48,348 bases of DNA from Candidatus Bathyarchaeota archaeon. GTDB lineage: Archaea; Thermoproteota; Bathyarchaeia; Bathyarchaeales; Bathycorpusculaceae. Position numbers and translations under genes: made by a program. Where the stretch lies: the NCBI GenBank assembly GCA_963806535.1, contig CAWDYC010000002.1, positions 1-48,348 of the forward strand, read 5' to 3'. A model generated the notes under the pieces. The model was not told the DNA's origin and searched no databases. It worked only from the letters and a program-made list of their open reading frames with translations. This document shows, in pieces, positions 18,592 to 46,077 of the stretch (within the stretch, counting starts at the first letter, position 1; the number at the start of each line of letters is the position of its first letter).

Positions 18592-18722
18592 AGGAAGAGT
18601 CAAAAAGAGTCAATTATAGTCCTATTTAGTCATAAAGAGTCTAAATCCGTCAAATATAGTCGCAACCTGCAAACGCCTCAAATTCTGAAACAAAAAAGCA
18701 ACCTAAAACACAAACAACAAAA
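18592..18722 (+). repeat. Phased 10-bp array (7 units ending GTC) plus conserved 61-bp core, copy A
   Basis: aggaagaGTC aaaaagaGTC aattataGTC ctatttaGTC ataaagaGTC taaatccGTC aaatataGTC, then GCAACCTGCAAAC-N17-AAAAAAGCAACCTAAA. Confidence 0.85.
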
Positions 18723-18797
18723 TTTAACCATACAGTGAATCAGAACAAACTACCCTAACTAAGAGAGTAATTCCCACCTTTTCGAATTGTTTCTTAG

Positions 18798-18971
18798 CTA
18801 TCTACGTTTAGGTAGCGGTATCACTTCAACATCTAAAGGCAACAGCGAAAGTTTTCTGCTACATTTTGGACATTTTCCACCGTTTTGAGAAATAACTTCA
18901 TCCGGCGGCCTAAGTTCAGAGCCTTCATACAAAATGTGATTGCATCCTTGACAAATAACACGTTGCGGCAT
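18798..18971 (-). CDS. Small zinc-ribbon protein, 57 aa (not in the ORF track)
   Basis: MPQRVICQGCNHILYEGSELRPPDEVISQNGGKCPKCSRKLSLLPLDVEVIPLPKRR*, with two CxxC motifs. Confidence 0.8.
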   Translation of the reverse strand: MPQRVICQGCNHILYEGSELRPPDEVISQNGGKCPKCSRKLSLLPLDVEVIPLPKRR

Positions 18972-19098
18972 CCAAATCCCCGTCTAAATACATGATGTGG
19001 GCTATTTATTGGTTGCTAAAATAATTAGTCTTCAAACAGAGCTTGGTTGCCAAGATACAAGATCTGAAAAGCTTATTTTTATAGAACGATAACTTGGA

Positions 19099-21198
19099 AT
19101 GCTTAAGCGTGGTCTAATTGCCTTGGGAAAATACAGGTTAATTATAACTGAAAAACCTGATGCCGCACAAAGAATAGCCATGGCTTTAGACATCGAAGGA
19201 AACGCCAAAAAAACAATCGACAGCGGCGTACCTTACTATCGAGCATATAGAAACGGCGACATAATTGTTGTACCTGCTCTAGGACATCTATACGCTGTTG
19301 CAGGTAAAGAAAAAACAAAGCGAGATTACCCGGTTTTTAATTATCAATGGGTTCCAAGATATTTAGCTGAGCGAGGGGCATCAAAGATTCGTGTTTGGCT
19401 TAAAGTAATCGCTAATTTAGCGAGCAATGCTGACGACTTCGTGGATGCCTGCGACTTTGATATTGAAGGTAGCATCATAGGATACAGCATTCTCAAGTAT
19501 GCGTGCGGTGGCAAAGAAGAAAATGCAAAGCGTATGAGGTATTCTACGCTTACGCAGGAGGAACTCCAAGAATCCTATTCTTACTTACTGCCTCATTTGG
19601 ATTTTTCACTAGTTGAAGCTGGATTAACGCGGCATGAAGTTGATTGGCTTTATGGCATCAACCTGTCCCGAGCTCTAACAACTGCTGTAAAAAACTGCAG
19701 CGGCCAATATGCCACAATAAGCACGGGCAGAGTGCAGGGACCTACCCTAAAATTTCTGGAAGAACGGGAAAAAACCATAAAATGCTTCGTGCCTACTCCC
19801 TACTGGGTTATAACTGCAAAAATAAACATAAACGATACGCCTTACGTAGTGGATTATGAAAGAATCATCAATAACAAACTAGAAGCAAAGCAGATAGTTG
19901 ATGCTTGCAAATCCAAAGAAGGTCAAATAGAAAAAGTAACGGTTGAGGAGTTTGAGCAGAATCCTCCGTTGCCCTTTGACCTAGGCACATTGCAAAGTGA
20001 AGCCTACAAAGTCTTCCATTATACGCCAATGCGTACTTCAAAAGTTGCTCAACACCTTTACTTGAGTGCATTGATTTCTTATCCAAGAACAAACAGCCAA
20101 AAACTTCCGCCAGCAATCGGCTATAAAACCATACTTAAAAAACTGAGCAAGATGCCCGATTTTGCTCAATCTGCGTTAACGCTGCTTTCTAAATCTACAT
20201 TGAAGCCACATGAAGGACAAAAAACTGATTCAGCACACCCAGCGATTTACCCAACTGGAAATTTGCCAGAAAAAACCCTCAAAGAGGAAGAAAGAAACAT
20301 TTTTGATCTTATTGTTCGTAGATTCATGGCTGTATTCGCTGAACCTGCAATCCGTCAAAGTATTAGAGCCTTAATAGGTATTAACGGGCATCTTTTTGAG
20401 TTAACTGGAATTAGAACGTTGAGCGAAGGATGGCTCAGATTTTATAAACCGTATGCTCAGCTGAAAGATATAGTTCTGCCGTCATTAGTTGAACATCAAA
20501 AAATCGATGTAAAGAGAGTTTCTCTTAAGGAAAATCATACAAAACCGCCTGCACGGTATAATCCTAGGACTTTACTATTAAAGATGGAAAAAGAGGAAAT
20601 AGGAACAAAAGCAACAAGAGCCTCAACAATTCAAACATTGTACGACCGAAAATACCTCCATGGAATTGATAGACTTTTTGTTTCTGATCTCGGGTTTGAA
20701 GTCATAGAAATATTATCACAGTATTGTCCAACAGTTGTTTCTCCAGAATTAACTCGAAAATTAGAGGCGAAGATGCAAGAAATCCAGAATGGACAACAAA
20801 CAAAAGCTACTGTGCTGCAAGAAGCTATAGAAATTCTGAAGCCAGTCACATCAGAACTTAAGGAAAAAGAATCAATTATCGGAAAACAATTAAATCAGGC
20901 AATAAGACAGGCATGGCTAGACGAAAAAGCGGTCGGTCGATGCCCAAAATGCTTTGATGGGCAACTAACGATTTTACGTTCTAAAAAAACTGGAAAACGC
21001 TTTGTGGGCTGCACAAACTATTTTGAAAAAAAATGCGATGCTATCTTTCCACTTCCACAATTTGGAACAGTTAAGCCATTGGCTAAAGCTTGTGAAATTT
21101 GCGGTTGCCCGATAGTGTATATTTTAATTAAAGGAAAAAAGCCTTGGAAATTATGCTTGAATCCTAAGTGTTCATCGAAAGGAGCGAGAAAGCAGTGA
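19099..21198 (+). CDS. topA: Type IA DNA topoisomerase with C-terminal Zn ribbons
   Basis: IITEKP TOPRIM motif, DACDFDIEG, GRVQGPTL, ISYPRT active-site Tyr, GTKATR, FVGCTNY. Confidence 0.95.
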   Translation: MLKRGLIALGKYRLIITEKPDAAQRIAMALDIEGNAKKTIDSGVPYYRAYRNGDIIVVPALGHLYAVAGKEKTKRDYPVFNYQWVPRYLAERGASKIRVWLKVIANLASNADDFVDACDFDIEGSIIGYSILKYACGGKEENAKRMRYSTLTQEELQESYSYLLPHLDFSLVEAGLTRHEVDWLYGINLSRALTTAVKNCSGQYATISTGRVQGPTLKFLEEREKTIKCFVPTPYWVITAKININDTPYVVDYERIINNKLEAKQIVDACKSKEGQIEKVTVEEFEQNPPLPFDLGTLQSEAYKVFHYTPMRTSKVAQHLYLSALISYPRTNSQKLPPAIGYKTILKKLSKMPDFAQSALTLLSKSTLKPHEGQKTDSAHPAIYPTGNLPEKTLKEEERNIFDLIVRRFMAVFAEPAIRQSIRALIGINGHLFELTGIRTLSEGWLRFYKPYAQLKDIVLPSLVEHQKIDVKRVSLKENHTKPPARYNPRTLLLKMEKEEIGTKATRASTIQTLYDRKYLHGIDRLFVSDLGFEVIEILSQYCPTVVSPELTRKLEAKMQEIQNGQQTKATVLQEAIEILKPVTSELKEKESIIGKQLNQAIRQAWLDEKAVGRCPKCFDGQLTILRSKKTGKRFVGCTNYFEKKCDAIFPLPQFGTVKPLAKACEICGCPIVYILIKGKKPWKLCLNPKCSSKGARKQ

Positions 21199-21419
21199 AA
21201 TGCAAAATTTGCTGTAGAGATGTTCAGGAAAACGAATTTTGTAATTTGCATCTGGAAGCTTACAAGAACATTGTAGCTAAATTCGATGTATGGACGAGAG
21301 CTTCAGGCATTATTTGGAGCGAATATTTGGTTGTGATTCAGAAAAATTCATTAACAGGAGTATGGGCTAAAGAAGTAGCAAAGCATCTAATTGAGGAAGG
21401 GAATCAAAATGTCAAGTAA
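21195..21419 (+). CDS. Small Cys/His-containing hypothetical protein
   Basis: GTG overlapping the topA stop; MKCKIC...FCNLH...TGVWAKEV. Confidence 0.65.
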   Translation: MKCKICCRDVQENEFCNLHLEAYKNIVAKFDVWTRASGIIWSEYLVVIQKNSLTGVWAKEVAKHLIEEGNQNVK

Positions 21420-21834
21420 AGTTAAGAAAGATTCATCGTCTCTGTCATTTTCGCTGAGCAGGTGGTTCAGAAGAATCTCAACAGGAACACCCACATTGGC
21501 AGTAGCCACTATTGTTGGACTTGCATATTCTGTATTCATCTTTGGCGGTGGCTTGTTTACTCTTATTAATCATCCTTCTCCTTCAGCTTACTATAATGGA
21601 AGATTTTACTTTCTCTATCCAAGTCTAAGTTCACAATTTATTTCAGATACCGCGATCTCAGTAATTTTGTACGCCCTTGGCTTTGTCGGTCTACTTATGG
21701 TCTACCAAAGTTCAAAGAGCGCTTACAAACCAAGGCAAGCATATATGATGTTAGTCATAGGCGTAACATTTCTGCTAATATCATACATATTCTTAGAAGG
21801 CGCAATCTCCTTCAAAGCAAACGGCGGACAATAA
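21409..21834 (+). CDS. Three-TM protein resembling the OSTC/DC2 - OST3/OST6 TM domain
   Basis: FGGGLFTLINHP...FLYPSLSSQFISD...LYALGFVGLLM...MLVIGVTFLLISY follows the OST3/6-DC2 helix and loop pattern as recalled. Confidence 0.6.
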   Translation: MSSKVKKDSSSLSFSLSRWFRRISTGTPTLAVATIVGLAYSVFIFGGGLFTLINHPSPSAYYNGRFYFLYPSLSSQFISDTAISVILYALGFVGLLMVYQSSKSAYKPRQAYMMLVIGVTFLLISYIFLEGAISFKANGGQ

Positions 21835-21872
21835 TCCACTTCTTTTCATTTTTCAAAATTTTGTTGCCAACA

Positions 21873-22370
21873 CTACCAAGGATGTCTCTTTAACTTCAGC
21901 TTGTAAGCTAAGAAATTTGTAAAAAGGTGAATTGGTGGGGTTATCAACAAAACGGTAACTGCCAATTGCCAGTAAACAATCATAAGCGGAATAGCAAACA
22001 CTAATGCGCCTACAACAAAATCAATTTGGTCAACGACTGGAAGTAACCCTCCTGGGGCAATCCCGATTCTTCTTTTCAAAAAAGCACCCGTTAAATCACC
22101 CAAAAGTGCCCCCAAAGGTGTTAAGACGATGAATAATACAGGGAACCCTGGAAAGACCACGTACTCAATTGAGCCAACAATCATTCCGATTGCCAATCCG
22201 AAAAAGAAGCCCCTGAACGTCTTATTGTTTCCAAAAATCCGCTTGCGATCGACAAAATTCTTTCCGAAGTCCATTTTTGCTCCTCCTCCAGCAAGAACTG
22301 GTGTGGCGTTAGCACAATAAGCTGGAAAAATAAACTTCAATGCTTCAATGATTAGAAGAGCTATGTCCAT
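21873..22370 (-). CDS. carS: CDP-archaeol synthase
   Basis: PAYCANATP, DFGK..D.KRIFG.NKTFRG, GDL.GAFLKRR, DQIDF, KRHPW. Confidence 0.92.
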   Translation of the reverse strand: MDIALLIIEALKFIFPAYCANATPVLAGGGAKMDFGKNFVDRKRIFGNNKTFRGFFFGLAIGMIVGSIEYVVFPGFPVLFIVLTPLGALLGDLTGAFLKRRIGIAPGGLLPVVDQIDFVVGALVFAIPLMIVYWQLAVTVLLITPPIHLFTNFLAYKLKLKRHPW

Positions 22371-22383
22371 GCAGCGTCAACCA

Positions 22384-23082
22384 TTAACCTTGGAATTCAG
22401 CGTCTACTATTCCTCTTTCCAGTATTTGTACATAACAGGTGATTTCTTGATCGTTTTCCCGTGATTTTTCTAGAACGGCTTTTATGGATTGAGGGAAATC
22501 TGTTGGTTTGAGAGCGATAATGTTGTCAGACCAAAACTTCAAAACCCTGGTAGCTACAGGTCTAACGCTACCATCTGATTGGTCAAGAACACTTCTAACT
22601 TGACTCGTTATTATTACTGGGATTTTTCTAATTTTAACAGTTTGAGCTAAAATTGCTAATTGTCTATTTAGCTCGCGGTTTACACTAAAGGCCTTCCCTG
22701 AAGTCTCACATACCTTGGCTCCATACAATGAAGTGAACGTATCAATTACTATTAATCCAAAATTCTTCACAGTATACTCTTGAAGGCGATCTATAACTGC
22801 AGTTTGCTCTTTGAAATCTTTTGGCTTAACTAAAATAATTTGTTCAGCAATCTGATCGAATTTTTCTCCAGAAAGCTGTGAAAGTCTTTTAGTTGAAAAT
22901 GTGTTATCGCAGTCAACAAAGAGCGTTTTATAATTCTGTAATCCACAGCTAACTGCGGATTGTATGGCAAGTGTTGTTTTTCCAGTTTCAGGCTCACCAT
23001 AGATTAAACTGACGCTATCTGGTGAAAACCCTCCGCAAAGGTTGTTATCGATGCATCTGCAGCCAGTGCTTATCTTAATCAA
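22384..23082 (-). CDS. radB: RadB-like RecA-family ATPase
   Basis: ISTGC..ID, Walker A GEPETGKT, LIVID, ITSQV; lacks the RadA N-domain. Confidence 0.8.
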   Translation of the reverse strand: MIKISTGCRCIDNNLCGGFSPDSVSLIYGEPETGKTTLAIQSAVSCGLQNYKTLFVDCDNTFSTKRLSQLSGEKFDQIAEQIILVKPKDFKEQTAVIDRLQEYTVKNFGLIVIDTFTSLYGAKVCETSGKAFSVNRELNRQLAILAQTVKIRKIPVIITSQVRSVLDQSDGSVRPVATRVLKFWSDNIIALKPTDFPQSIKAVLEKSRENDQEITCYVQILERGIVDAEFQG

Positions 23083-23159
23083 GGTTCTTCACGTCAACAT
23101 TATAAACCTGAACTAGTAATGTTTTTGCACTTAAACGTATACTATTAAGGTTTGATTTA

Positions 23160-23813
23160 GTGAAAGAAAAAGTTGCAGTGTCAACGGTAGATGGCAAAGC
23201 GTATTTTCTGATTGTTAACCAGCTTCGAGAGCGAAATATCCCCTTTGTGAGTTTGGTTCCAGGCGATTCGGTGCCTGCTAAAGTAAAAGTTGTGATAACC
23301 ACTGAAAAGGAAAAGTCTTTAATCAGCTATGAAAAAATCCTAATTTTTCCAGGCGAGGATGAATTGGATGTTTTAGTTGATGAAGTAGAGAAAACGCTTC
23401 AGGGAAAAGACGCCTACGAAAAAATAATAATTGGGGTCGATCCAGGTGAAGCAATTGGGTTGGCAGCAATCGCCGATGGAAAAGTAATTGAAGAAAGCAA
23501 CTGTTTTAGTCCAAAAGAATTGATTGATGCCATAAACAAAGCGATAAAAAATATTGATTTTTCAGTAACAAGTGTTGCTGTTAAAATCGGGAATGGTGTT
23601 CCAATCTACAAAGATTTACTTGACGCCCTAGACGATGCTCTGCCGCAAAAAGTAGATTTGATTGTAGTTAGTGAAGCAGGAACTAACAAACCATTAAAAG
23701 AGAATAAACGCAGCCGAGGAATCAGACACATTTCTTCGGCTAAAAGGATAGCAGTCAGAACAGGCAATATTTTTCCAAGGAGGAAGGCACTTGCAACAAA
23801 CAGTCGAATCTAA
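23160..23813 (+). CDS. Hypothetical protein with an RNase H-like (YqgF/RuvC-type) domain
   Basis: IIGVDPG..IGLA, KIGNG, VSEAGT, H..SA..IA. Confidence 0.6.
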   Translation: MKEKVAVSTVDGKAYFLIVNQLRERNIPFVSLVPGDSVPAKVKVVITTEKEKSLISYEKILIFPGEDELDVLVDEVEKTLQGKDAYEKIIIGVDPGEAIGLAAIADGKVIEESNCFSPKELIDAINKAIKNIDFSVTSVAVKIGNGVPIYKDLLDALDDALPQKVDLIVVSEAGTNKPLKENKRSRGIRHISSAKRIAVRTGNIFPRRKALATNSRI

Positions 23814-24882
23814 TAATACAATATTAGTTGATGGTCCAGCATCAGTGAGGCTTGTTTCTGGCAAAGTTGAAGTCTTCGGCGCGCAGATAAAGGAAATGAA
23901 AAGAGTCTTGATTCGTGAAGGAAAACGTTTGCCATTCTTTGTACGCGAGAAAGCTGTTTTAGACATTTCGTTAGGAGTTAACGCAACCCTGAATGAAGTT
24001 GCCGGCAGAAGCACGATTCCTCAATCGTGGAATAAGCCCATAGAAGCAATTTTGAGCGCCCAAAAGAAGCCATTGGTTATTTTGATTTTGGGAAGAAATG
24101 ATTCAGGAAAGTCAAGCTATTGTACATACTTAGTAAACAAACTTGTTAGCGGAAATTGTAACGTCGCTGTTTTAGATGGCGATTTAGGTCAATCAGACAT
24201 TGGCCCTTCCGGAACTGTGGGTTATGCTTTTACTTCAAAGCCGCTTACGGAATTGCAAGATTTGAAGTTGGAAAATGCTTTTTTTGTAGGCGTTACATCG
24301 CCCATAAAGGCGATCACTAAAATGATTGAAGGCTTAATTGCGATGAAGGCTCAGATTTTGGAGCGGCCAGTTGATTTTGTATTGGTTAATACTGATGGTT
24401 GGGTTACAGGTGATATTGCGGTAAAATATAAAACTGCATTAATTAAAGAATTGAAACCTGATCTCATAGTTGGCTTGCCGCAGGCTGAAGAACTTGAGAT
24501 GCTAGTCACTAACATCGAAGAAACGCCAATAATCTTGGTTGAGCCCTCTTCCTCACTTAGTCAGCGGAGTCCCGAAAAACGAAAAAGACTGCGAGAAATG
24601 ACTTATGTGAGATATCTAAAAAACGCCACTGTGCAGAATTACCCAATGAGCCATTTGATTATTGAACCAAAGAATGCTATTCCTAAACGTCAAGAGCCAG
24701 AAAAAGGACTGCTGGTTGGGCTTTACGGTTCAAAAAATAAATTCTTAGGAATAGGCATTTTGAGAGAAATTAACTCTTTGAGAAAAGCGCTGAAAGTTCA
24801 AACGTCCGTTTCAGCGACGCCTAAGAGGCTGGTTATTGGAAAAGTTGTCTTAAACACGAAATTGCAGGAAATTCAAGATTGA
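23791..24882 (+). CDS. Clp1/Grc3/Nol9 polynucleotide 5'-kinase
   Basis: GRNDSGKSS, DGDLGQSDIGP, VNTDGWV, lid motif RS.EKRKRLRE. Confidence 0.88.
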   Translation: MQQTVESNNTILVDGPASVRLVSGKVEVFGAQIKEMKRVLIREGKRLPFFVREKAVLDISLGVNATLNEVAGRSTIPQSWNKPIEAILSAQKKPLVILILGRNDSGKSSYCTYLVNKLVSGNCNVAVLDGDLGQSDIGPSGTVGYAFTSKPLTELQDLKLENAFFVGVTSPIKAITKMIEGLIAMKAQILERPVDFVLVNTDGWVTGDIAVKYKTALIKELKPDLIVGLPQAEELEMLVTNIEETPIILVEPSSSLSQRSPEKRKRLREMTYVRYLKNATVQNYPMSHLIIEPKNAIPKRQEPEKGLLVGLYGSKNKFLGIGILREINSLRKALKVQTSVSATPKRLVIGKVVLNTKLQEIQD

Positions 24883-26807
24883 TTTTTGAAGAAATCTCTA
24901 ATTTCATTGCCTAAAACATTTTTTTCGTTCGGCAACGTTTTCATTCCATTGCTTATCCATGATGGCAAGAAGTTTCTGCAGTAGCTTGTGGAGAAACGAT
25001 AGTCTAAGAATACTATGGCGCCTCGATCGTCAAGTGTTCTTATGGGTCTTCCTGCTGCTTGTGACGCCTTTTTCATGGCAGGCAAAATATAGCCGTATTC
25101 TCGTCCAAGCCCTGGAAAACATTTATCATAATATTCAATCTGCGCTTTCACTCTTGGAGTCGGCTCCGCATAAGGAACACCTACCACGATTACAGAGTTC
25201 ATTTGGTTTCCTGGAAAATCCACACCCTCCGAGGTTCTTCCTCCCTGAACGCCCAAAAAAACTGCTCCACCTTTGCCTCCGCATGCTTTAAAATCTGAAA
25301 CCATTTTCTCGTTTGCTTTAGAAGTCATTCCTCTTCTTTCATGAAAAAGCGGTTTCTGCAGAGTATTTTCTAAGCCTTCGTTGAGCAAAGAATTCAGCAC
25401 TTCAAAGGAAGCGGCGAAAATTCCCGTGTTGGTGGGCGTATTCTCTGCTACCTCGCTTATTCGTTCTATCATTGTTTGGTACATTGCTGGTGTTCTTTTT
25501 TCCATCGCTGTGGTGACGCCAAGACAAACTGCTGAAAAAACATGTTCCTTTGGAAATGGCGATGGTACAATACATCTTACAGTGTTTTGCGGCAGTTTTG
25601 TTATTCGTGCGTAAGCTTCCAGTGGCTGAAGAGTGCCAGACATTATAACATTAGCATATGTGGATGAGAAGACTGGCTCTGTGACTTTCGCAGGATCCAA
25701 AGCAACTATCTGAAGTTTTGCTGTTTTATTTTTTTCTTTATTTAGATAGCGGCTTGCAACATTAATGAAGGCGTTGTCTCCCACGGTATCCAGAAATTTG
25801 AGTAAAAACTCGCTCATTGCATGAACGTAGGAGCGCGGATTTTTTCCTTCTGCCAATAAACTTTTCTTGATAGCGCCGCCTGCCTCATGCATACTTTGGA
25901 AAAACTCTCTTGGATGAGATATGTTGCCGTGTTTTTGAATGATTTCAATAATTCGGTCAGCTGAAATTATTTCTTCTCGGTAGACACTGTCGGTTAATTT
26001 TTCAACTTCGACTCTAAAAAATTGTGCAAAAGCCTCAATGTCTTTGTTGCCAAATCTGTTAGCTTCAACTTCTGCCTGCTTCATTACAAAAAGCGATAAG
26101 GTGCTGCCTGAAATGTCAATAGCTGTCTCAGGCAAATTATGCGCTTCATCAACTATCAAAATTATTTTTTGCAGGTCCGTTTCCATGCCTTTTAGAAAAG
26201 CATTTCGAATCTGAGGATCAAAAACGTAGAGGTAGCTTAAAGCAACCACTCGAGCGTCTGATAGAGCCGATTTTACTAGTTCGTATGGGCAAATTTCTTT
26301 TTTCTTGCAGATTGATAAGATTTCAGATGCCATGTATGGGCGAACTGCAACTTGTTGTTGAAGTTGAATGTACTCGTAGGTTCGCTCATCAACATGAGTG
26401 TAGTAAGGGCATCTGCTTTTTGCCTTCAATAACTCGCAAACTTCCATCAAGGATTTTGAGTCAAAAGCGCCTCGAGCCGCAAAAACGTTAAGGCACATTT
26501 CATTGCGTCCGCGAATGGAGACTCCTGTGACTGGCTGCTGCCGATGAATGGCTTTTAACTCTTCTATTACACGGTCATGTTGTCTGTGAGTTCTTGCCAC
26601 GTAAAGTATCTTCAAGTTTTTCTCCATAGCTACAGGTATGCAAGCAGAAAGGGCTGAGATGGTTTTTCCTAAACCATTGCTTCCTTCGATGAGAATTGAA
26701 CGCCTTTCATGTACAGCGTTATAGACTGTGGAGATAAATTCGTCTTGATAGGGGCGCACGTCAGAGTAGGGAAAATACTTTGCAACAGCGGAGGGTAGCT
26801 TAATCAT
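24873..26807 (-). CDS. xpd: XPD/Rad3 Fe-S DNA helicase
   Basis: RPYQ, GLGKT, four Fe-S Cys, DEAHNL, SGTL, SEGVDF, QAAGRPIR. Confidence 0.92.
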   Translation of the reverse strand: MIKLPSAVAKYFPYSDVRPYQDEFISTVYNAVHERRSILIEGSNGLGKTISALSACIPVAMEKNLKILYVARTHRQHDRVIEELKAIHRQQPVTGVSIRGRNEMCLNVFAARGAFDSKSLMEVCELLKAKSRCPYYTHVDERTYEYIQLQQQVAVRPYMASEILSICKKKEICPYELVKSALSDARVVALSYLYVFDPQIRNAFLKGMETDLQKIILIVDEAHNLPETAIDISGSTLSLFVMKQAEVEANRFGNKDIEAFAQFFRVEVEKLTDSVYREEIISADRIIEIIQKHGNISHPREFFQSMHEAGGAIKKSLLAEGKNPRSYVHAMSEFLLKFLDTVGDNAFINVASRYLNKEKNKTAKLQIVALDPAKVTEPVFSSTYANVIMSGTLQPLEAYARITKLPQNTVRCIVPSPFPKEHVFSAVCLGVTTAMEKRTPAMYQTMIERISEVAENTPTNTGIFAASFEVLNSLLNEGLENTLQKPLFHERRGMTSKANEKMVSDFKACGGKGGAVFLGVQGGRTSEGVDFPGNQMNSVIVVGVPYAEPTPRVKAQIEYYDKCFPGLGREYGYILPAMKKASQAAGRPIRTLDDRGAIVFLDYRFSTSYCRNFLPSWISNGMKTLPNEKNVLGNEIRDFFKNQS

Positions 26808-27476
26808 TTTTTATCCCCTAAACTCTTTGATGGACAATAATTATTCACTGGGCACTCAATGCAATGCGGTCTGCCTAGCTTTGCAGTATTTTCTGCCAAG
26901 CGCAATCAAAAACAAATGAACATCCAAGTAATCTTTCTGGTCAAAAAGCTTCTGAAGACTCAAACGTACCTCTTCGTAATCGCCATTTGTAGGTGCGAAA
27001 CCAAGCCGTTTCGCCACACGATTCACGTGAGTATCAACAGGAATGGTGGGCTGGTTTGCTGAGAAAAGCAAGACAACATCTGCGGTTTTCGGGCCAATTC
27101 CAGGCAATTCCATCAACATTTTTCTTGCTTCATCTAAAGGCAAAGATAAAATCGGATCTAGCGAGCCGCCAAATTTTTCGAGAACAATTTTTGATACATT
27201 TTTTATTGTTTTGGCTTTGCTTTTGTAGAGCCCGCCAACGTGAAGACATGCCTCAATCTTGCTTGTTTCTGCACTTGATAGTGTTTGAGGTGTTATTTCG
27301 AATTGCTTCGATAGGTTTTCGAAGGCTCGCTCGGTGTTGGTGTCAGCGGTGTTTTGTGAAATAATTGTTACAATTAAGGTTTCAAATGGGTCATTTTTCG
27401 GTTTAACCAATTTGGGTGTGGCTAGGCTGTTCTTTAAAGTTTGCAAGATTGTTATAGCGTTAGTTTCAACTGTCAC
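26804..27476 (-). CDS. nth: Endonuclease III, frameshift inside the C-terminal Fe-S motif
   Basis: IISQNTAD, LPGIGPKTAD, VDTHVNR; CKARQ/PHCIECPVNNYCP completed in the shifted frame, with its stop overlapping the xpd ATG. Confidence 0.9.
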
Positions 27477-27701
27477 TTTTGCCTTCGCCCCTTTGGAAAA
27501 TATTGACAAAGTATTGATGTGCCAAGCTATAAATATCATCTATGAACAAGAAAGAGGATTTTCACGGTTTACAACGTCAAAATAAACAAAACGTTCCTGT
27601 AGCATTTGGAAATGAAGTTGTATTGGTAAGAGGAAAGGTTTTTAGTGTAGTTATTATATGAGACTGTGAAAAGTGTATAGTGGTAAAGTGAGGTTAACAT
27701 T

Positions 27702-28430: not shown

Positions 28431-28437
28431 AAACTCG

Positions 28438-29127: not shown

Positions 29128-29151
29128 AAATAAATTTGGATGGTGAAATTT

Positions 29152-29862
29152 ATGCCAATATTCTTTGAAAAGAAACAGCTTGTAACGCCGGGAGAAATGC
29201 TTGCTGAAGGCGAATATTTACCTGGCGAAAATACATACATGGAACAGAACAAGATCTACTCCTCAAGAATTGGGCTTGTAGATACCGATAATAAAAAAGT
29301 TAACGTTGTTGCACTTCGGGCTTTTTATGTGCCAAAAATGGGTGACATCATAATCGGAACGGTCGTGGAAGTTGGATTTAACGGTTGGACCGTTGACATT
29401 AAAGCACCCTACACAGCACTCCTACGTGCATCTGACGTTTTAAGCAGACCCTTCAAGCCTCAAAACGACGAGTTATCTGCAGTTCTTAGTGCTGGCGATT
29501 TAATTGTTGCAAAAATCGCTTCCTACGACAGAGCACATGACCCTCAACTCACTGTTGGAGAGCCAGGGTTAGGAAAAATAACTCGTGGACAAATTCTTCA
29601 TGTAACCCCTACAAAGATTCCTCGCATAATCGGCAGAAAAGGCTCAATGATATCTATGATTAAACAGGAAACAGATTGCCAAATCATTTTGGGGTTAAAC
29701 GGTGTTGTCTTGGTTACTGGGAAAACAGTTGAAGAAGAAGAACTTGCCATAACGGCAATCAAAAAGATTGAGGACGAATCCCACACAAGTGGGTTAACAG
29801 ACCGCATTACACAGTTACTTAAAGAAAGTAAGGTTAAAGTGGAGGAAAATAAGAATGAATGA
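29152..29862 (+). CDS. rrp4: Exosome subunit Rrp4
   Basis: [19 protein letters not shown] domain [10 protein letters not shown]. Confidence 0.95.
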
Positions 29863-30592
29863 AAAACCAGAGAAACTAATTGATAAAAAAGGTATAAGAT
29901 TAGATGGCAGAAAAGCCGATGAACTTCGGCCCGTAAAACTTCAAGTCGGCGTTTTACCAAACGCTGATGGATCAGCCTATATTGAACATGGAAAAAACAA
30001 GATTCTTGCCGCAGCATTCGGTCCAAGAGAAATGCATCCGAAACATTTGTCTCAACCAGACAAAATGGTTCTGCGATGCCGCTATCACATGGCACCCTTT
30101 TCCGTGCAAGAACGCAAGTCACCAGCACCTTCAAGAAGAGAAGTTGAACTTTCCAAAGTCATAAAAGAATGTTTAGAACCAGCATTGTTCCTGGATCTTT
30201 ATCCGCGAACAGGCGTAGACTTATACATTGAAATACTGCAAGCTGACGGCGGAACACGATGTGCAAGCATCACTGCTGCTGCCCTAGCACTTGCTGACGC
30301 TGGAGTTCCAATGCGTGACTTAGTAGTTGGTTGTGCCGCAGGAAAAATTGACGACACCGTTGTCTTAGACCTCTATGATGCTGAAGACAAACTCGGTGCC
30401 GCTGATGTTCCAATAGCTTACATGCCCAGCATGAACGCAGTGACGTTACTTCAAATGGATGGAATACTTACACCTGACGAATTTGAGAAGGCAATGAACA
30501 TGGCAATTGATGGATGCAAAAAAATCTATGAAATGCAGAAAGAAGCATTAAAAACAAAATATATGGTTGTTAAAGAGGAGGGCGAAGAGTAA
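29855..30592 (+). CDS. rrp41: Exosome subunit Rrp41
   Basis: [31 protein letters not shown]. Confidence 0.96.
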
Positions 30593-31383
30593 TGTCATCA
30601 CTTGTAACACGAGTAAAACTAAAACAGATTGAAGAACTTATTGCAAAAGGAAAACGCCTAGATCAAAGAGGCTTACACGATTACAGACCAATAAAAATTG
30701 AGCAAGGATTAATTGAACGCGCTGAAGGTTCTGCAAGAGTTTTACTTGGCAAAACAGATGTTCTTTGCGGAGTAAAAGTTGAAACAGGAGAACCGTTCCC
30801 AGACACACCTAACGATGGAGTAATGACTGTTAACGCTGAACTTGTTCCGTTGGCTTCACCGAATTTTGAGCCAGGACCACCAAACGAAGACTCCGTTGAA
30901 TTAGCAAGAGTTGTTGACCGAGGAATACGTGAATCACATGCAATTGACACTGAAAAACTATGCATTGAACCAGGCAAGAAAGTCTTTGTTGTCTTTGTCG
31001 ATGTCTACGTACTAAATCACGACGGAAACCTAATTGATGCTTCCGCTTTGGCAGCCATGTCTGCTCTAATGAACACAAAGATGCCTAACTACGAAATCAA
31101 AGACGGCGAAATAAAGATGAAACAAGGATACACCCCATTACCGATGAAAAGCCACCCAGTAACAGTTACCATGGGAAAAATTGCAAATACACTAATTGTT
31201 GACCCATGGGCTGAAGAAGAGCAAGTTATGGACTCAAGAATATCAATGGCTATCAACGAAGACAACAACATTTGCGCTATTCAGAAAGGCGGCTCAGGCT
31301 ATTTCACACCACAACAGATTTTAGAGGCATCAAAGATTGCTCAAGAGAAATCTGCGGAAATACGCAAAAAACTTAATTGGTGA
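30592..31383 (+). CDS. rrp42: Exosome subunit Rrp42
   Basis: AEGSARV, PFPDTP, ELARVVDRGIRES, HDGNLIDA. Confidence 0.96.
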   Translation: MSSLVTRVKLKQIEELIAKGKRLDQRGLHDYRPIKIEQGLIERAEGSARVLLGKTDVLCGVKVETGEPFPDTPNDGVMTVNAELVPLASPNFEPGPPNEDSVELARVVDRGIRESHAIDTEKLCIEPGKKVFVVFVDVYVLNHDGNLIDASALAAMSALMNTKMPNYEIKDGEIKMKQGYTPLPMKSHPVTVTMGKIANTLIVDPWAEEEQVMDSRISMAINEDNNICAIQKGGSGYFTPQQILEASKIAQEKSAEIRKKLNW

Positions 31384-31724
31384 AAAAAGTGCCAAAAACA
31401 AAGAAAGTAGGTCCAACTCGAGGCTTCGGACCACGTTACGGTTCAACAGTTAGGAAACGCTACATAAAAGTAATCACTGAACTCAAAAGACCGCATAAAT
31501 GTCCAAACTGCGGCTTCGTACGAGTGAAACGTGAAAGCGTCGGCATCTGGAAATGCAGCAAATGCAGTTACACTTTCGCTGGCGGAGCATACACTCCAAC
31601 AACAAAACTTGGCGTTGTAGCTAGACGCGCAGCTAAAGGTTTGCCGGTAGAGGAAGCAACAAAAGAAGCGGCAAAAGCTGAAACAGAAAATATTGAACCA
31701 GTAACCGAAGAAGAAACCGAATAA
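31377..31724 (+). CDS. rpl37ae: Ribosomal protein L37Ae (eL43) with an acidic C-terminal tail
   Basis: FGPRYG..VRK, CPNC..., GIWKCSKC, AGGAY. Confidence 0.95.
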   Translation: MVKKVPKTKKVGPTRGFGPRYGSTVRKRYIKVITELKRPHKCPNCGFVRVKRESVGIWKCSKCSYTFAGGAYTPTTKLGVVARRAAKGLPVEEATKEAAKAETENIEPVTEEETE

Positions 31725-31806
31725 ACCTCTTTTCTTTAATTTCTTTTTTGTTTATTTTTAGATTTTGTTTATTACTTTGAACTTCGTTTAGCATTTGGAA
31801 TGCTTT

Positions 31807-32063
31807 ATGGCAATAAAGGCAAAGGCTACTGTGCGTTTAAAGTTCAATTCAGAAAAACAATTAACAACACTTCTTGATGCTTTAACGCCGGAAGCAAATG
31901 CGCCAGCAACAAGACGTGCTAATGTAAACTGGAAAAAGACGGTTTATTTCTCTTATTAACCGTTGAAGCTGACGATACGGTTGCTTTGCGTTCGACGTTG
32001 AATGCTTATTTGAGATGGATAAACTCAACAGTTAACATAATAGATGTGGTTGAGCACACTTAA
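31807..32063 (+). CDS. pcc1: KEOPS subunit Pcc1, frameshift near 31928 (not in the ORF track)
   Basis: Manual translation MAIKAKATVRLKF...ALTPE...RRANV/LEKDG..LTVEADDTVALRSTLNAYLRWI; expected position in the exosome superoperon. Confidence 0.85.
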
Positions 32064-32089
32064 CGTGTCGGCTAATTGACAAAGAAGTT

Positions 32090-32344
32090 TTACTTGTATT
32101 TTGCCTTAAACATTAGAATTATGAGTGCTTGAATGAAAGCTAAAGAATTAGCAAGAATTATTGCCAAATCGTTTCGGAAAACTCCATAAACAAACCATAA
32201 CAATACGCCACCGCAGTAAAGCATGAACATTCCAAAGGAGATGTCTTTGGTTGATTTTGTTTTCCAAACCTTAATTAACTGTGGAAGAAGCGCAACTGTG
32301 GTGAAAGCTGCGGCGATTAAGCCAATGATTGTAATGATATCCAT
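32090..32344 (-). CDS. SemiSWEET (PQ-loop) transporter
   Basis: TTVALLPQLIKVWKTKSTKDIS...WFVYG...IILAN. Confidence 0.9.
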   Translation of the reverse strand: MDIITIIGLIAAAFTTVALLPQLIKVWKTKSTKDISFGMFMLYCGGVLLWFVYGVFRNDLAIILANSLAFIQALIILMFKAKYK

Positions 32345-32537
32345 TATGCTCTTGCTTCTAACGTGCTACGCGAATGGTATTTACATTTCGCTAACCTTAA
32401 AGAAAATTGTCCATGTATAAGCCAGCAGTCTCGGTTGCTGATTGACGGTTGATGTTGGCATCTTGTCAAAAAGGTTTAAATAAATACTGACTTATTCCCT
32501 ATATGCTTTAACATAAAAAAACGGATGAAAACTTAGC

Positions 32538-33026
32538 ATGTCACAGGAATATCGTTACATTCTTCGTATTATGGGCACCGACGTTCAAGGTACCCTTAAG
32601 ACTTCTTACGCGGTAGCACAAATAAAAGGTGTAAGCATGAGCCTCTCAAATGCAATTTTGAAAAAGGCAGGAGTAAACCCTGACCTTCGAGTAGGCTTCT
32701 TAACAGAATCAGACATCTCAAAAATAGAAGATGTTATCCGAGATCCAGCAAAGTATAGTCTGCCAATCTGGATGTTTAACAGGCGAAAAGACTCGGAAAC
32801 TGGAAAAGACATGCATCTTTTAAGTGCTGACCTTGCTTTAAAAACAAAACAGGATATTGATGAAGCTAAAAACATTAGGTCTTGGCGAGGATACCGCCAT
32901 GCTTACAGCCTGAAAGTTCGTGGACAACATACAAAAACCACTGGACGCGCAGGCAAAGCCTTAGGAGTAAAGAAGAAGACCCTCCTGCAGAAGCCTGGTG
33001 GAGCACCCGCTGAAGGAGGCAAATAA
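32538..33026 (+). CDS. rps13: 30S ribosomal protein S13
   Basis: [22 protein letters not shown]...[13 protein letters not shown]. Confidence 0.97.
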
Positions 33027-33028
33027 GC

Positions 33029-33619
33029 ATGGGAGATCCAAAGAAGCAACGTAAAAAGTTTGATACGCCACGGTATCGTTGGCGTAAAGATATTCTTCAA
33101 GAAGAACTTAAGCTTCTGGGGCAATACGGCTTAAGAAATAAGCATGAGCTTTGGCATCTTAAAACTACTCTGTCAAAGACCAGAGGCATCGCCCGTTCAC
33201 TTATCAGTAAAACTCCTGAAGAACGAACAAAAATGGAAAATGAGCAACTAGTTAAACTCAAGAAACTTGGGATTTTGCAAGATACTGCAGTGTTAGATAA
33301 CGTTTTAGACTTAACTATCGAAGATATCTTAGAACGCAGATTGCAAACAATTGTTTTCCGCAAAGGTTTAGCGCGAACAGTCTACCAGTCACGTCAACTA
33401 ATCACTCATGGACACATAACCATCGATGGCCGCCGAGTAACCATTCCAGGCTACATTGTGCCCAAAGCTGATGAACCAAATGTTATCTATTCACCAGAAA
33501 GTGCAATTGCAAACCAAGCTCACGCATTACGCGCGGGATTATCAGTGGTTGCTAAACAACCAGAAATTAGGCAGCCTACCAGAGGTCGAAGAGGCGGAAG
33601 AGGAGGCGGCAGATTCTGA
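33029..33619 (+). CDS. rps4: 30S ribosomal protein S4
   Basis: [32 protein letters not shown]. Confidence 0.97.
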
Positions 33620-34020
33620 GCGCCAACAGCAAACGTAACGAGAAATTTGCCATCGTTCACATCTTCAGTTCCTACAACAACACCTTAATCCATATAACGG
33701 ATCTTTCAGGTGCAGAAACAATCGCCCGCACAAGCGGTGGAATGTTCGTCAAAGCAGACCGCATGGAATCATCACCCTACGCTGCTATGCGTGCAGCAAC
33801 AGGCGCAGCTGAAGTTGCCCGAGATAAAGGAATAACAGCCATCCACATTAAAGTACGAGCGCCAGGCGGTTCGGGACCAAGAACTCCGGGACCAGGCGCA
33901 CAAGCAGCTATACGCGCGTTGGCAAGATTCGGCTTCAAAATTGAACGTATTGAAGAAGTTACACCAATTCCCCATGACGGCACCAGACGACCTGGCGGCA
34001 GAAGAGGAAGAAGAGTCTAA
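33616..34020 (+). CDS. rps11: 30S ribosomal protein S11 (apparent CTG start)
   Basis: In-frame upstream [24 protein letters not shown]; [26 protein letters not shown]. Confidence 0.95.
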
Positions 34021-34110
34021 ACTCAATTTCCCTTCTTTATTGACAGAAAAATTGAAATAATGCCCTTATATCTCTATTGAAACGCACGGCAATTATAGTA
34101 ACTTATTGGA

Positions 34111-34938
34111 GTGTCTCAGCAAGTGAAAATTGAAATCCTTGAAAAAAACGATACCAACCTCCGCATAATCGTTAAAGATGCGGATGTTCCGTTAATGAAC
34201 GCTCTGCGTCGAATAGCCCTTGCTGAGGTTCCATGCATGGCAATTGAAGAAGTTGTCATGATAGAAAACTCTTCAATTTTGCAGGACGAAATAATCGCTC
34301 ACCGATTAGGCTTAACCCCTCTGAAAACTGATTTAGACGCTTATAGTCTGCCTGAAGACGTGCAAATGTCAAAGCGAATTCGGTTGTCCAGAATGCCGAG
34401 TAACCCTAACTTTGGATTCAGAAGCTAAAGAGGGAACAAGAACCGTTTATTCAGGCGAAATAGTTTCTGACAACCCAGAAATCATGCCGGTGTCAGACAG
34501 AATCCCAATAATAAAATTGGCTAAAAACCAAAAATTAAAGCTTGAAGCTTACGCACGGCTTGGCAGAGGAAAAGTCCATGCAAAATGGCAGCCAGTTTCA
34601 ATGTGCGCATACAAATATTATCCAAAAATAACCACTCCGACAGAGAAATGTGAAGAATGCACAAAATGTGCAGATATCTGTCCAAAGAAAGTTTACGCGA
34701 TTAAAGACGAAAAAGTTGAGGTCCGCGATCTCTTAGCCTGCAACTTTGCATGGACTGTGTGGAAGCTTGCCCAAAGAAACCTTCACCGTTGACGGTTGAA
34801 TGGGAAAAGAACGCTTTCGTAATGAATATAGAATCAACCGGTGCACTTCCGCCAGAACGCGTGCTTAAAGAAGCCACCAAAATATTAGGTAAAGAACTAA
34901 ACGAACTTGAAGAATTATTAAAGGCTGAACCACAATGA
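34111..34938 (+). CDS. rpoD: RNA polymerase subunit D (Rpo3) with Fe-S/ferredoxin inserts, two frameshifts
   Basis: NALRR..EVP, NSS.LQDE.IAHRLGL, HAKWQP, CEECTKCADICP, ESTGALPP. Confidence 0.94.
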
Positions 34939-35297
34939 AGGAAACGAAAACTACAAACCCAGAATTAATCCATCTTATCGGTCTTTTAAAGAAAGAAAGC
35001 AGAGAAAAACAAGCAGGCATCTGGCTAGACATAGCTGAATACCTCTCAAAAACACGCAGTCAACGTATCTCTGTTAACTTAAGCACAGTAAACAGGAATA
35101 CAAAACGAAGCGAAGTCGTTGTTGTTCCAGGCAAACTTCTCGGATCCGGCAGCATAGACCATGCAGTAACAGTAGCATCGTTTGCTGCTTCCCAGAAAGC
35201 AAAAGATAAGCTTGCTGCTGCAAAATCAAAATACCTTTCAATTCCTGAACTCTTGGAGAAGAACCCTAAGGGCGCAAACGTAAGGATTATTCGGTGA
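34935..35297 (+). CDS. rpl18e: 50S ribosomal protein L18e
   Basis: TTNPEL, VNLS, VVVPGKLLGSG, NPKGANVRII. Confidence 0.95.
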   Translation: MKETKTTNPELIHLIGLLKKESREKQAGIWLDIAEYLSKTRSQRISVNLSTVNRNTKRSEVVVVPGKLLGSGSIDHAVTVASFAASQKAKDKLAAAKSKYLSIPELLEKNPKGANVRIIR

Positions 35298-35304
35298 GAA
35301 AAAA

Positions 35305-35755
35305 ATGGAAACATCAATGAAAAGCCGTGTTACACTGGTAAATGCTGAAGGATTAATAGTTGGTAGAATGTGCAGCAAAGTTGCCAAACGATTACTAAAC
35401 GGAGAAGAAGTTACAATTCTAAACGCTGAAAAAGCAGTTTTCTCAGGCAAAAAGAAAGCCAAAATCTTGGAAGCCCACATATTTCTCGAAGTAGGTGCTC
35501 CAGTGCGTGGTCCATTCCATTATCGAAGACCTGACCGTTTTCTACGAAAAACTGTTAGAGGTATGGTTCCGTTATAAGCAGCCCAAAGGTAAAGAGGCTT
35601 ACACGCGGCTCAGAGTTTTCATGGGTGTACCTTTGGATTTTAAAGGTAAAGAAATGATTACATTCGAAGAAGCTTCATCTGCCAATCTGAAGGGTCCACA
35701 TTTCACTCTTGGCGAATTGGCAAAAGAAATCGGATGGAGAAACAGGATGGAATAA
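35305..35755 (+). CDS. rpl13: 50S ribosomal protein L13, frameshift near 35572
   Basis: GRMCSKVAKRLLNG, RRPD..LRKTVRGMVP/YKQPKGKEA. Confidence 0.95.
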
Positions 35756-35757
35756 TT

Positions 35758-36169
35758 ATGCCAGCAAAAAAAGTTTTAGTTGTTAGCGGAAAAAGAAAAA
35801 CCGCAGTTGCCCGCGCCGTAGTTAAACAAGGTGTTGGTAAAGTGCGGATAAACATGACTCCAATTGAAATTTACGAACCAGACATCGCGAAAGCAAAAAT
35901 CATGGAGCCACTACTGCAAGCAGGCGGAGACATCTGGCAACAATTAGACATGGATGTTCACACCAGCGGCGGAGGCTACATGGGTCAAGCAGAAGCAGCC
36001 CGCATGGCAGTTGCAAACGCATTACTCAAATGGACAAAAAGCACTCATCTTACGCACAGTTTTTAGCGAATATGACAGAACAATGATTGCAGGAGACAGC
36101 CGAGCTAAAGAAACCAAAAAGTTCGGTGGAGCCGGCGCCCGATCAAAAGAACAGAAAAGCTATAGGTAA
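35758..36169 (+). CDS. rps9: 30S ribosomal protein S9, frameshift near 36050
   Basis: [38 protein letters not shown]. Confidence 0.95.
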
Positions 36170-36183
36170 GGAGAAAAAACAAA

Positions 36184-36414
36184 ATGATAATTCCCGTAAG
36201 ATGCTTCACCTGCGGCAAACTGGTTGGAGACCAATGGGAAGAATTCACCCGCCGAATCAAAACAGGCGAAAACGCAAGCGACATATTAGACAGCCTTGGC
36301 TTAAAACGGTACTGTTGCAGACGCATGCTGCTCTCAAACGTCGAAATCATCGATGAAGTTCTGCGCTTCTATGAAGAAGCAGAGAAACGCAAAGAAGCAC
36401 GCAACTTCTACTAA
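36184..36414 (+). CDS. rpoN: RNA polymerase subunit N (Rpo10)
   Basis: [12 protein letters not shown]...RYCCRRMLL. Confidence 0.97.
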
Positions 36415-36594
36415 ACTTCTTTTCCAATTAAACTTGGTTTTGAGTCCAATAGTTTACATTTTAGCTAAACGTGTAGCTGTATGGAGTGAACTTTTTCTCT
36501 ATGAATTTTAGCCAGTTCAGTTTAGTCTTCTATTGGTAAAGCGAAGGCTTATACAGAGGTCGCTTCTATCATCATGGCAAGGAACTGAGAGAAC

Positions 36595-36726
36595 ATGACT
36601 TTTATTTTTAAGGATCATTATTTTAAAAACGGTTGGGATTGTAGTAAATGCGGCAAGATGACGGAGCATCTTAAAGAGGGGAAAGGTGCCAACGCTAAAC
36701 TCGTTTGCACTATCTGCGGGACATAG
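36595..36726 (+). CDS. Putative 43-aa zinc-finger microprotein (not in the ORF track)
   Basis: MTFIFKDHYFKNGWDCSKCGKMTEHLKEGKGANAKLVCTICGT*, with CxxCG twice. Confidence 0.65.
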   Translation: MTFIFKDHYFKNGWDCSKCGKMTEHLKEGKGANAKLVCTICGT

Positions 36727-36881
36727 GCTGCCTATTGAGCGTATAGATTTGCAACTTGCCATAAAGTGATCAATCGATTATCTCTAAACTTTGGAAAAGA
36801 GTTTTCTATAATCGCAAAAGCAAGATACTCCTTCTCCACAAAGCATTAAAGCGTAATCTGCTCAAAAAGCATTAGATACTA

Positions 36882-37481
36882 ATGAGCCCCAAATGGTTTT
36901 CAAATAAGCCAACAGGTCCGCCAAAAACAAAAATTGAGCTGACTGCGCAGAAAACTCAGTACTGCCTAGGCGACCAAATAAGTGGTACTGTAAAAATTTC
37001 TTCGGAAGAAGAATTCCTTGTTAATCAGGCAATTGTTTGTTTGAGTTGTAATGAAAATCTCAAGAAGACTCGGGTTACTGGTACTCAATATGGGACTTTT
37101 CAAAGTGAATATTGGGATGCTGGCGTAATTTATTCTAACTCTTGTAAATTGTTTGGGGCGGCCCTTATTCCTCAAGGTTTCGCCGCGACGTATCCGTACA
37201 CTTTGTCAACCTCAATTGCGGCTAAAGAAACGGTTTATAGCGTTGATCATTATGTCAAGTGGTTTTTGTACGCAACCCTAGAAGCAGCGAATGGTCGTCC
37301 AAACATTCAAACGATCACTTACGAAATACAGATTGGGCGACCACCAGTCAGCCAACAAACTGCAGCTATTGTGAAGGAAGTTGAGCGGGAAGTAGTTTTG
37401 ATACCGTGTCCTTACTGTAGCTCTCTTATGCCTCAGGCAGCCATATTCTGTCCTAATTGTGGCGCAAGACGAAAAACATAA
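36882..37481 (+). CDS. Arrestin/SpoOM-like beta-sandwich protein with a C-terminal zinc ribbon
   Basis: Y..GD.ISGTVKI, YPY, VKWFLYATL; C-terminal CPYC...FCPNCG. Confidence 0.6.
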   Translation: MSPKWFSNKPTGPPKTKIELTAQKTQYCLGDQISGTVKISSEEEFLVNQAIVCLSCNENLKKTRVTGTQYGTFQSEYWDAGVIYSNSCKLFGAALIPQGFAATYPYTLSTSIAAKETVYSVDHYVKWFLYATLEAANGRPNIQTITYEIQIGRPPVSQQTAAIVKEVEREVVLIPCPYCSSLMPQAAIFCPNCGARRKT

Positions 37482-37497
37482 GAGGGCTTTTATAGTG

Positions 37498-37617
37498 TTT
37501 TTGGGACTTTTTGGGACGAATCAAGACGAATCCAGACAAAAGGGACGAATCTAGACGCAACCTGCAAACATTGCAAGCTTTAAACTAAAAAAGCAACTTA
37601 AAGGACAAAGAACAAAA
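37498..37617 (+). repeat. Phased 10-bp array (6 units ending GAC) plus conserved 61-bp core, copy B
   Basis: tttttggGAC tttttggGAC gaatcaaGAC gaatccaGAC aaaaggGAC gaatctaGAC, then GCAACCTGCAAAC-N17-AAAAAAGCAACTTAAA. Confidence 0.85.
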
Positions 37618-37706
37618 ACTGCACAAAAAACCGTCAGTAACCTGGTTTTAGGAACTTCGGATAAAATAGACAAAAAAATAAAGTGTTTAAAAAACAAAAA
37701 TTGGGT

Positions 37707-38510: not shown

Positions 38511-38512
38511 TT

Positions 38513-45958: not shown

Positions 45959-46077
45959 ATTACTTCACAATTATGCTGTTACTGAAAATCAGAGATAACT
46001 CCTTCTAAACAGAAACTATGAAATATAATAATCAATTATAAAACACAAGGTATCCTGCATAGAAAGTGACTTGGTAA

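Follow-up and report, generated by a model that had tools for sequence, protein, structure and literature searches.

A dispersed repeat of 10-bp-spaced boxes and a conserved core, and its association with genes of a predicted barrel protein in Bathyarchaeia

The repeat in the window and in the genome

The stretch of DNA analysed here, referred to as the window, is 48,348 nucleotides long and constitutes contig C2 of the genome of a Candidatus Bathyarchaeota archaeon (genome G000; 2.95 Mb in 12 contigs, assembly 92% complete). Two sites in it, copy A and copy B, carry an array of direct boxes at a spacing of 10 bp, followed immediately by a conserved core. This module of array and core was found about 100 times in the genome and lies directly upstream of the genes of a small protein family predicted to fold as a RIFT barrel. 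It is proposed, at a probability of about one half and from linkage, fold and analogy with the regulator MraZ, that the module is the 5' control region of these genes, with the barrel paralogues reading the phased words of the boxes, and that copies A and B are gene-less versions of it.

The coordinates of the features are collected in Table 1. Direct reading and counting upheld the architecture described in the original prediction, an earlier reading of the window from its letters: each of the seven 10-bp units of copy A terminates in GTC, the six units of copy B (one of 9 bp) end in GAC, TAGWC closes both arrays with GCAACCTGCAAAC abutting directly, and the 61-bp cores (18662-18722 and 37557-37617) are identical at 47 of the 61 positions without gaps. 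Tandem Repeats Finder returned a period of 10 at both copies, and the lag-10 autocorrelation of the arrays was 0.62 for copy A and 0.58 for copy B. The exact 13-mer of the core occurs twice in the window; with up to two mismatches five matches were found, against 1.92 expected.

All 12 contigs of G000 were searched with the 13-mer and then with an nhmmer profile of the core, which gave 114 matches up to E 1, of which 94 had E≤1e-4. The element, originally described as two-copy, is so inside the window only. A genome-wide scan for further copies had been suggested at the time, their absence being named as a finding that would tell against the element, and about 100 copies were recovered. They share a common build of an upstream array, the 13-mer, a variable 17-mer (N17), AAAAAAGCAACC with an A-rich run, and a weaker tail, ctgcacaaaaaaccgtcaataac; judged by column information, conservation extends about 24 bp beyond the 61-bp core into this tail. 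The most conserved 13 bp sit exactly at the junction of array and core. The sense strand of the core is composed of 52% A and 25% C. N17 (core positions 14-30) occurs in two near-reverse-complement forms, GATTTAAGCTTTGCTTC and AAAACAAAGCCTAAATC (for example at G000:C9:160959 and C5:271431, respectively), and gives the impression that a TATA-like segment was inverted.

The arrays adjoining the cores had a mean lag-10 autocorrelation of 0.58, as compared with 0.27 (standard deviation 0.06) in 3000 random intergenic windows of 70 bp. The 99th percentile of this control was exceeded by 79 of the 94 arrays, and 10 bp was the best lag in 90. An array contains 5-9 boxes and spans 60-80 bp. The spacers between the words are A/T-rich and the conserved part is a specific G/C-containing word, which varies among the copies in about a dozen classes (TGAC, TTAC/TTCC/TTGC, AGTC, AGAC/GGAC, GACC, AACG, CACAC and others). 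The AGTC class of copy A is common to four other copies in the genome.

Most copies (88/94) are intergenic according to a crude home-made open reading frame (ORF) caller, on which all neighbour statistics given here are based. Same-strand head-to-tail clusters account for 42 of the 94 copies, at spacings of 106-247 bp and usually with mixed word classes, and composite units of two elements recur at at least five loci in G000. A segment of about 900 bp is present three times (G000:C4:413387-414074, C5:365231-365929 and C11:6442-7097). It holds one element, a zinc-ribbon gene of 63 amino acids, which we take to be LysW-like, and two further elements.

Table 1. Positions of the array, core and neighbouring features in the window
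Feature	Position	Strand	Remarks
Copy A array	18592..18661	+	Seven 10-bp boxes in direct orientation; word reads (A)GTC on +, GAC(T) on -
Copy A core	18662..18725	+	Profile positions 1-64: GCAACCTGCAAAC, N17, AAAAAAGCAACC, A-rich run; nhmmer E 1.2e-12; R1 model E 3.2e-15
Copy B array	37498..37556	+	Six direct boxes, one of 9 bp; word GGAC/AGAC; all units end in GAC
Copy B core	37557..37617	+	nhmmer E 5.8e-12; 47/61 identical to copy A
Copy B tail (ctgcacaaaaaaccgtcagtaacc)	37618..37641	+	Weakly conserved extension of the core, found in many copies (stack of 94 copies, column information)
Relic of the sequence from array to start codon	18576..18594	-	Aligned by eye to L055, L054 and L032 (barrel gene present); ORF gone in G000
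Left neighbour ORF, 192 amino acids	17923..18501	-	In G056, G044 and G009 the orthologue is located on the same strand after the barrel gene

Genes of a predicted barrel protein next to the array

Clustering of 138 neighbouring ORFs by all-against-all BLAST gave one notable cluster, consisting of small proteins that diverge from the array side. In G000, tblastn located nine loci of this barrel family, seven intact and two broken. At all nine the element is directly upstream of the gene, with core position 1 at 73-131 bp before the gene start and the array in between. In every case the core occupies the complement of the strand that was read in the original prediction. Read on this complementary strand, the layout is a T-rich core, then direct boxes spaced by 10 bp, then the start codon.

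An independent sample of species-representative metagenome-assembled genomes (MAGs), nearly all from Candidatus Bathyarchaeota/Bathyarchaeia, which agrees with the lineage guessed in the original prediction, supplied 70 homologue loci with at least 200 nt of upstream sequence. The core was matched at 57 of these, always in the same orientation (57 of 57, none opposite) and at a median distance of 83 bp from the start codon (range 51-128); a periodic array was present at 48 of the 57. Remoter homologues from other genera of the class have short 10-bp-periodic arrays, with an upstream ...AAAGCTTAAAT-like motif replacing the full core. Related proteins have related words in their arrays, as seen in the GTGTG, GGTC, GTAC, GACT/CGAC and GTCT clades; in G000, for example, the paralogue at C4:368188-368463 has a GTGTG array and that at C9:160421-160678 a GGTC array. 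In the clade named 'MPLTEK' the array is separated from the gene by an additional box of the CTTAAGTA type.

Three elements in a row, each of a different word class, stand before some barrel genes (G000:C9:160762-161202 and L049 in G016:C5); if the arrays are bound, cross-control between paralogues would be possible at these loci. Many barrel genes across the genus are truncated or carry internal stops, including two of the nine in G000, and the frequency of these broken genes suggests a fast birth and death of paralogues. Small genes of the classical AbrB/SpoVT type, a family distinct from the barrel proteins, were seen near elements at G000:C4:418821-419461 and in C10 near 13995, one of them adjoining a presumably PIN-like gene.

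The barrel protein is about 92 amino acids long and its alignment reveals two similar halves. Among metagenomes, 67 homologues of about this length were found, some of which JGI names 'PrlF/AbrB antitoxin' and one 'MraZ'. An AlphaFold2 (AF2) model with a pLDDT of 90.9 has a duplicated strand-strand-helix-strand pattern, and the structure that matches it best is that of Pyrococcus horikoshii PhS018 (2GLW; by Foldseek E 2.8e-4, TM 0.72; by VIA Z 11.3, 2.3 Å over 84 residues), well clear of the next matches. A profile search against PDB sequences gave 2glw_A at E 0.073; a search of the seven G000 paralogues against Pfam at E≤1 returned nothing relevant and no SpoVT_AbrB match. Judged from the model, the fold is a single-chain swapped-hairpin (RIFT) barrel similar to PhS018 and of the AbrB/MraZ kind, with six strands and an internal two-fold repeat. 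PhS018 shares with the family its length (92 amino acids, about 92 in the family) and the internal two-fold repeat of strands and helix, and differs from it in sequence, the identity being only 17-18%. PhS018 is reportedly a single-chain relative of AbrB. In the accessible text of one paper it is classed as a RIFT protein, and its two-fold symmetry is described as high (PMC11258233). Neither a DNA target nor a function of PhS018 was found in the literature searched, as far as its text was accessible.

In a strict pattern search of 24 other species of the genus and 16 genomes of other families of the order, the repeat was found in 6 of the former and none of the latter. The sequence-only model R1 was applied to 40 congeneric genomes and gave 0-127 element matches per genome, counted among at most 129 scored candidates of each; with the protein profile 0-12 barrel protein matches per genome were obtained. 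Element and protein were both present in 24 congeners and both missing from 13, the element was alone in three (1-6 matches) and the protein alone in none, counts that are descriptive as kin genomes are not independent. In several species there is about one element per gene, for instance 8:7 in G042 and 3:3 in G001, and in G000, G013, G016, G044 and G056 elements are 5-15 times more numerous than genes (again among at most 129 candidates). Because the ratio covers this range among species, the gene-less copies look like lineage-specific bursts. The repeat family belongs to a single group of archaea living in soil and peat. An account of such a repeat in Bathyarchaeia was not found in the accessible text of the literature searched.

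Array turnover and the history of copies A and B

Both ends of the window duplicate other contigs of G000, positions 1-2946 corresponding to C7:2889-1 at 89-94% identity and positions 37431-48348 to C5:1-10921 at 96%; the window contig probably represents a strain variant in the MAG. Between the two versions of the latter segment the core and tail are identical, but one unit and several changes set the arrays apart. At the orthologous site C4:528250 the core is present in all three genomes compared, next to a TTAC/TTCC array in G000, a GTGAC array in G013 and a TTGAC/TTGCC array in G056. At C8:149118 a conserved core adjoins a GTAC/GTAT array in G000 and a GTCA array in G013, and the element is absent from G056, G016 and G053. 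Since the core is orthologous and the words differ at these two loci, the word changes throughout an array, or arrays are exchanged, while the adjoining core is inherited. The original argument that duplication or slippage could not have produced the pattern of copies A and B is weakened, as units are gained or lost between contigs of 96% identity and words change between species.

Past the same left neighbour, G056, G044 and G009 have a barrel gene, then the array with its core, and then the same conserved right flank. Because these genomes keep the barrel gene at the same locus, their comparison shows copy A to be a relic of a gene-linked copy, the barrel gene of which was lost by deletion. 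In other species, arrays of the 'MPLTEK' clade have the word of copy A (AGTC, or GACT when read on the strand of the gene), and no member of this clade was found in the 92%-complete assembly of G000. The non-coding sequence at 18817-19021, between copy A and a gene for 699 amino acids starting at 19099, is 70-81% conserved across much of the genus, beyond the flanking spacer. A weak Rfam match of the C/D-box small nucleolar RNA type is located at 18837-18911 on the minus strand (E 0.35, below gathering).

Copy B is situated between two convergent genes. The sister species G013 has it, with a similar seven-unit GGAC/AGAC array, next to the same gene on the right, in G056 only a decayed remnant was found, and it is absent from G044, which has a 121-bp spacer, and from seven other loci/species with different left neighbours. 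On genome comparison copy B is shown to be a lineage-specific gene-less copy, inserted between the two convergent genes. A barrel paralogue whose array has the word GTCC (= GGAC) is present in G013.

Proposed function and alternative explanations

According to the accessible text of a study on MraZ, octamers of this protein bind 3-4 GTG(G/T) boxes with 6-nt spacers upstream of mraZ, cooperatively, on one face of the DNA and in an autoregulatory manner, and both binding and repression drop stepwise as boxes are mutated (PMC12957436). The barrel system resembles this in its short fixed word, the 10-bp period, the direct orientation and the position directly upstream of the putative regulator's own gene; at least three direct boxes spaced by about 10 bp were present upstream of the barrel gene at 9 of the 9 loci in G000 and at 48 of the 57 elsewhere. 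It differs in being archaeal, in having many paralogues each with its own word, in the fusion of the boxes to a conserved core, in the roughly 100, mostly gene-less, copies of the module and in the lack of a dcw context: the genes downstream of the nine loci vary and none is dcw-like, as judged from N-terminal sequence and not Pfam-annotated. Membership of the MraZ family itself (PF02381, two tandem domains, about 150 amino acids) was rejected for the barrel protein of about 92 amino acids. None of 40 aligned members reached any Pfam cut-off, faint MraZ PF02381 similarity was seen in three of the 40 (best E 0.0037), and the MraZ-DNA structures 9r4j and 9sz7 match at only Z 4.9 and 4.3. MraZ is thus the closest functional analogue by an apparent resemblance in mode of working and not by family membership.

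From the linkage, the fold and the MraZ analogy the following mechanism is proposed. Several barrel molecules would occupy one face of the helix by cooperative binding, each box offering its fixed word of 3-5 nt, and this binding would control transcription starting in or beside the module in an autoregulatory way. Each paralogue would have its own word. In some species, including G000, the module has multiplied about ten-fold without the gene. The earlier idea of a protein laid along one DNA face thereby gains a concrete candidate, a family with a predicted DNA-binding fold encoded beside the array and with an analogue, MraZ, that binds boxes spaced by 10 bp; the recombination and partition roles attached to that idea found no support. 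We regard as secure the hundred-copy modular repeat with its 10-bp arrays, the link to the barrel gene, the gene-less bursts, the switching of arrays and the history of copies A and B.

Besides the faint similarity to MraZ in Pfam and in structure, several points weigh against the module being a control region. A barrel gene is missing from 85 of the 94 copies, and the copies occupy all four arrangements of neighbouring genes (35, 20, 19 and 19, by the crude ORF caller). The genes adjoining gene-less copies share no theme, as far as N-termini judged by eye and not Pfam-annotated can tell, and include what we take to be genes for DNA ligase, aIF6, Nop5, TetR or LysW; with such heterogeneous neighbours the gene-less copies are unlike a regulon. 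Neither an AGTC-type nor a GGAC-type paralogue was found in the 92%-complete G000, so that copies A and B have no visible reader and are probably orphan, decaying or cross-recognised sites and not working operators. A promoter matrix derived from G000 scored above 8 bits in 18 of the 94 cores on one strand and in 8 on the other, as compared with 6% of the control windows; in a subset of copies part of the core may serve as a promoter, but this would not explain why the whole core is conserved. Finally, the linkage and the correlation between proteins and words could stem from the co-inheritance of adjacent DNA alone.

The main rival, which we consider doubtful but serious, is that the module is a selfish, non-autonomous repeat of the BOX type or like a MITE (miniature inverted-repeat transposable element), spread by mobility or recombination and without any regulatory reader. 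The barrel gene would then be a passenger or the preferred neighbour of a 'long form', and the arrays would arise by slippage and gene conversion. BOX, Correia/NEMIS, REP/BIME and MITEs are modular dispersed intergenic repeats of bacteria, and the module is like them in its high copy number, intergenic position, bursts in certain lineages, presence or absence between relatives and modular build. Within the genus its distribution is patchy, from 0 to 127 matches per genome with bursts near 10:1 to the gene (among at most 129 scored candidates), and orthologous sites are polymorphic for its presence, copy B being absent in G044 and others and the C8:149118 element in G056, G016 and G053. The head-to-tail clustering of 42 of the 94 copies, the composite two-element units at at least five loci, the heterogeneous neighbour genes, the many broken barrel genes in the genus and the switching of the word while the core stays orthologous can be read in the same way. 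Unlike such repeats, however, the module has neither terminal inverted repeats nor a palindrome, possesses a 10-bp array with a copy-specific word and is tied to the gene of a predicted DNA-binding protein and not to a transposase. No terminal inverted repeats spanning copy A were found, and at copy B only a T-run/A-run complementarity of 73-75%; there is no conserved second end beyond the barrel gene and there are no tyrosine recombinases nearby, while a target duplication is not definable because the flanks of filled and empty sites are too diverged. Slippage alone would leave the 10-bp period of 90 of the 94 arrays unexplained, as a selfish repeat would the fixed orientation to the barrel gene at 57 of 57 loci. 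The control-region reading and a selfish repeat can both be partly true.

A small transcription unit, in which the core would be part of a non-coding RNA or of an unstructured CA-rich leader whose promoter would lie within N17 or the last box, is improbable. Hexamers enriched 20-50 nt upstream of the start codons of G000 yield a TATA-like motif, (G/C)TTAAAT(A/C), and N17 carries a CAAAGC(T/C)TAAATC-like sequence, near the consensus (CTTAAAT), in 20 copies on one strand and in 20 on the other, but 54 of the 94 have it on neither. The orientation class of N17 is at most weakly linked to that of the neighbours (13/20 vs 7/20), and by hand count the link vanishes when the gene-linked copies are left out. 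Contigs from an RNA library hold other copies of the core, a weak indication since DNA can contaminate such libraries, and contigs cannot show starts, ends or strand. No sequencing run contained more than 0.14 of the sampled words, and from four runs no contigs other than those of relatives were obtained; where contigs seemed to join copy A to copy B, this was due to the mapping of other element copies. A conserved RNA structure in the core was likewise rejected, as there is no consensus pairing on either strand. A match to an Rfam family accounting for core and array would have told against the original prediction, but there were no matches at gathering over the window and none at E≤1 over either copy. 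That the element is neither CRISPR nor attC also holds, given the lack of consensus pairing and a 10-bp period without spacers.

Still less probable is a purely architectural role, with phased A/T tracts curving the DNA or positioning archaeal histones or chromatin proteins at gene boundaries and with no sequence-specific reader. The 10-bp phase, the array length of 60-80 bp, the A/T-rich spacers between the words and the intergenic position of 88 of the 94 copies agree with it, but the conserved element of the array is a G/C-containing word and not an A/T tract, the words fall into discrete classes that recur in gene-linked arrays, and curvature leaves the fixed link to one protein family unexplained. 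Plasmid centromeres and some att arms typically have arrays of short direct repeats to which small ribbon-helix-helix or AbrB-like proteins bind, and an att arm provided with sites for accessory factors or a partition site resembling a centromere, both among the original candidates, would fit this general picture. Either is now very improbable with about 100 copies per chromosome. All five tyrosine-recombinase loci are more than 5 kb away from the nearest element (0 of the 94 copies within that distance; only tyrosine recombinases were searched), and no recurring recombinase or ParA-like family was found among the 138 neighbour ORFs (all-against-all BLAST, not Pfam-annotated). A tRNA lies within 600 bp at only four loci, and linkage to tRNA genes was rejected on this count. 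The copies in the window bound no recognisable island, and copy A is syntenic with a gene-linked copy elsewhere. Least credible is that the opposite strand of the core encodes a small hydrophobic peptide (...FVLCVLGCFFDLGFVLFAGC, lipobox-like). The frame reads hydrophobic and ends in FAGC in many copies, but any T-rich strand reads hydrophobic, and this coding reading was rejected because the start codon is not conserved, most copies have stops close by on both sides, TGA replaces the 'Cys' codon in 17 of the 94 and conservation has no 3-nt periodicity.

Array switching beside a fixed core raises the question of how whole arrays are replaced in place. A further reading, which we think unlikely, is an archaeal 'address' system, in which fast-diversifying RIFT-barrel paralogues would each read their own 10-bp-phased word and a copy-and-replace process at the invariant GCAACCTGCAAAC junction would write or swap whole arrays beside a common core at about 100 intergenic sites. 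If this were true, the set of tagged loci and the tagging paralogue would be reshuffled from one sister species to the next.

The gene control of Bathyarchaeia, which are uncultured and as carbon cyclers abundant in peat and sediment, is almost unknown. A protein of 92 amino acids and an array of 70 bp form a pair that can be made from sequence alone and tested in vitro without culture. If the pairing of barrel protein and array proposed here is true, it would provide the first DNA target for PhS018-type barrels in the literature searched, to the extent that its text was accessible, and an archaeal counterpart of box reading of the MraZ type. The paralogues with their different words would then form a natural set, useful for understanding how swapped-hairpin barrels read DNA.

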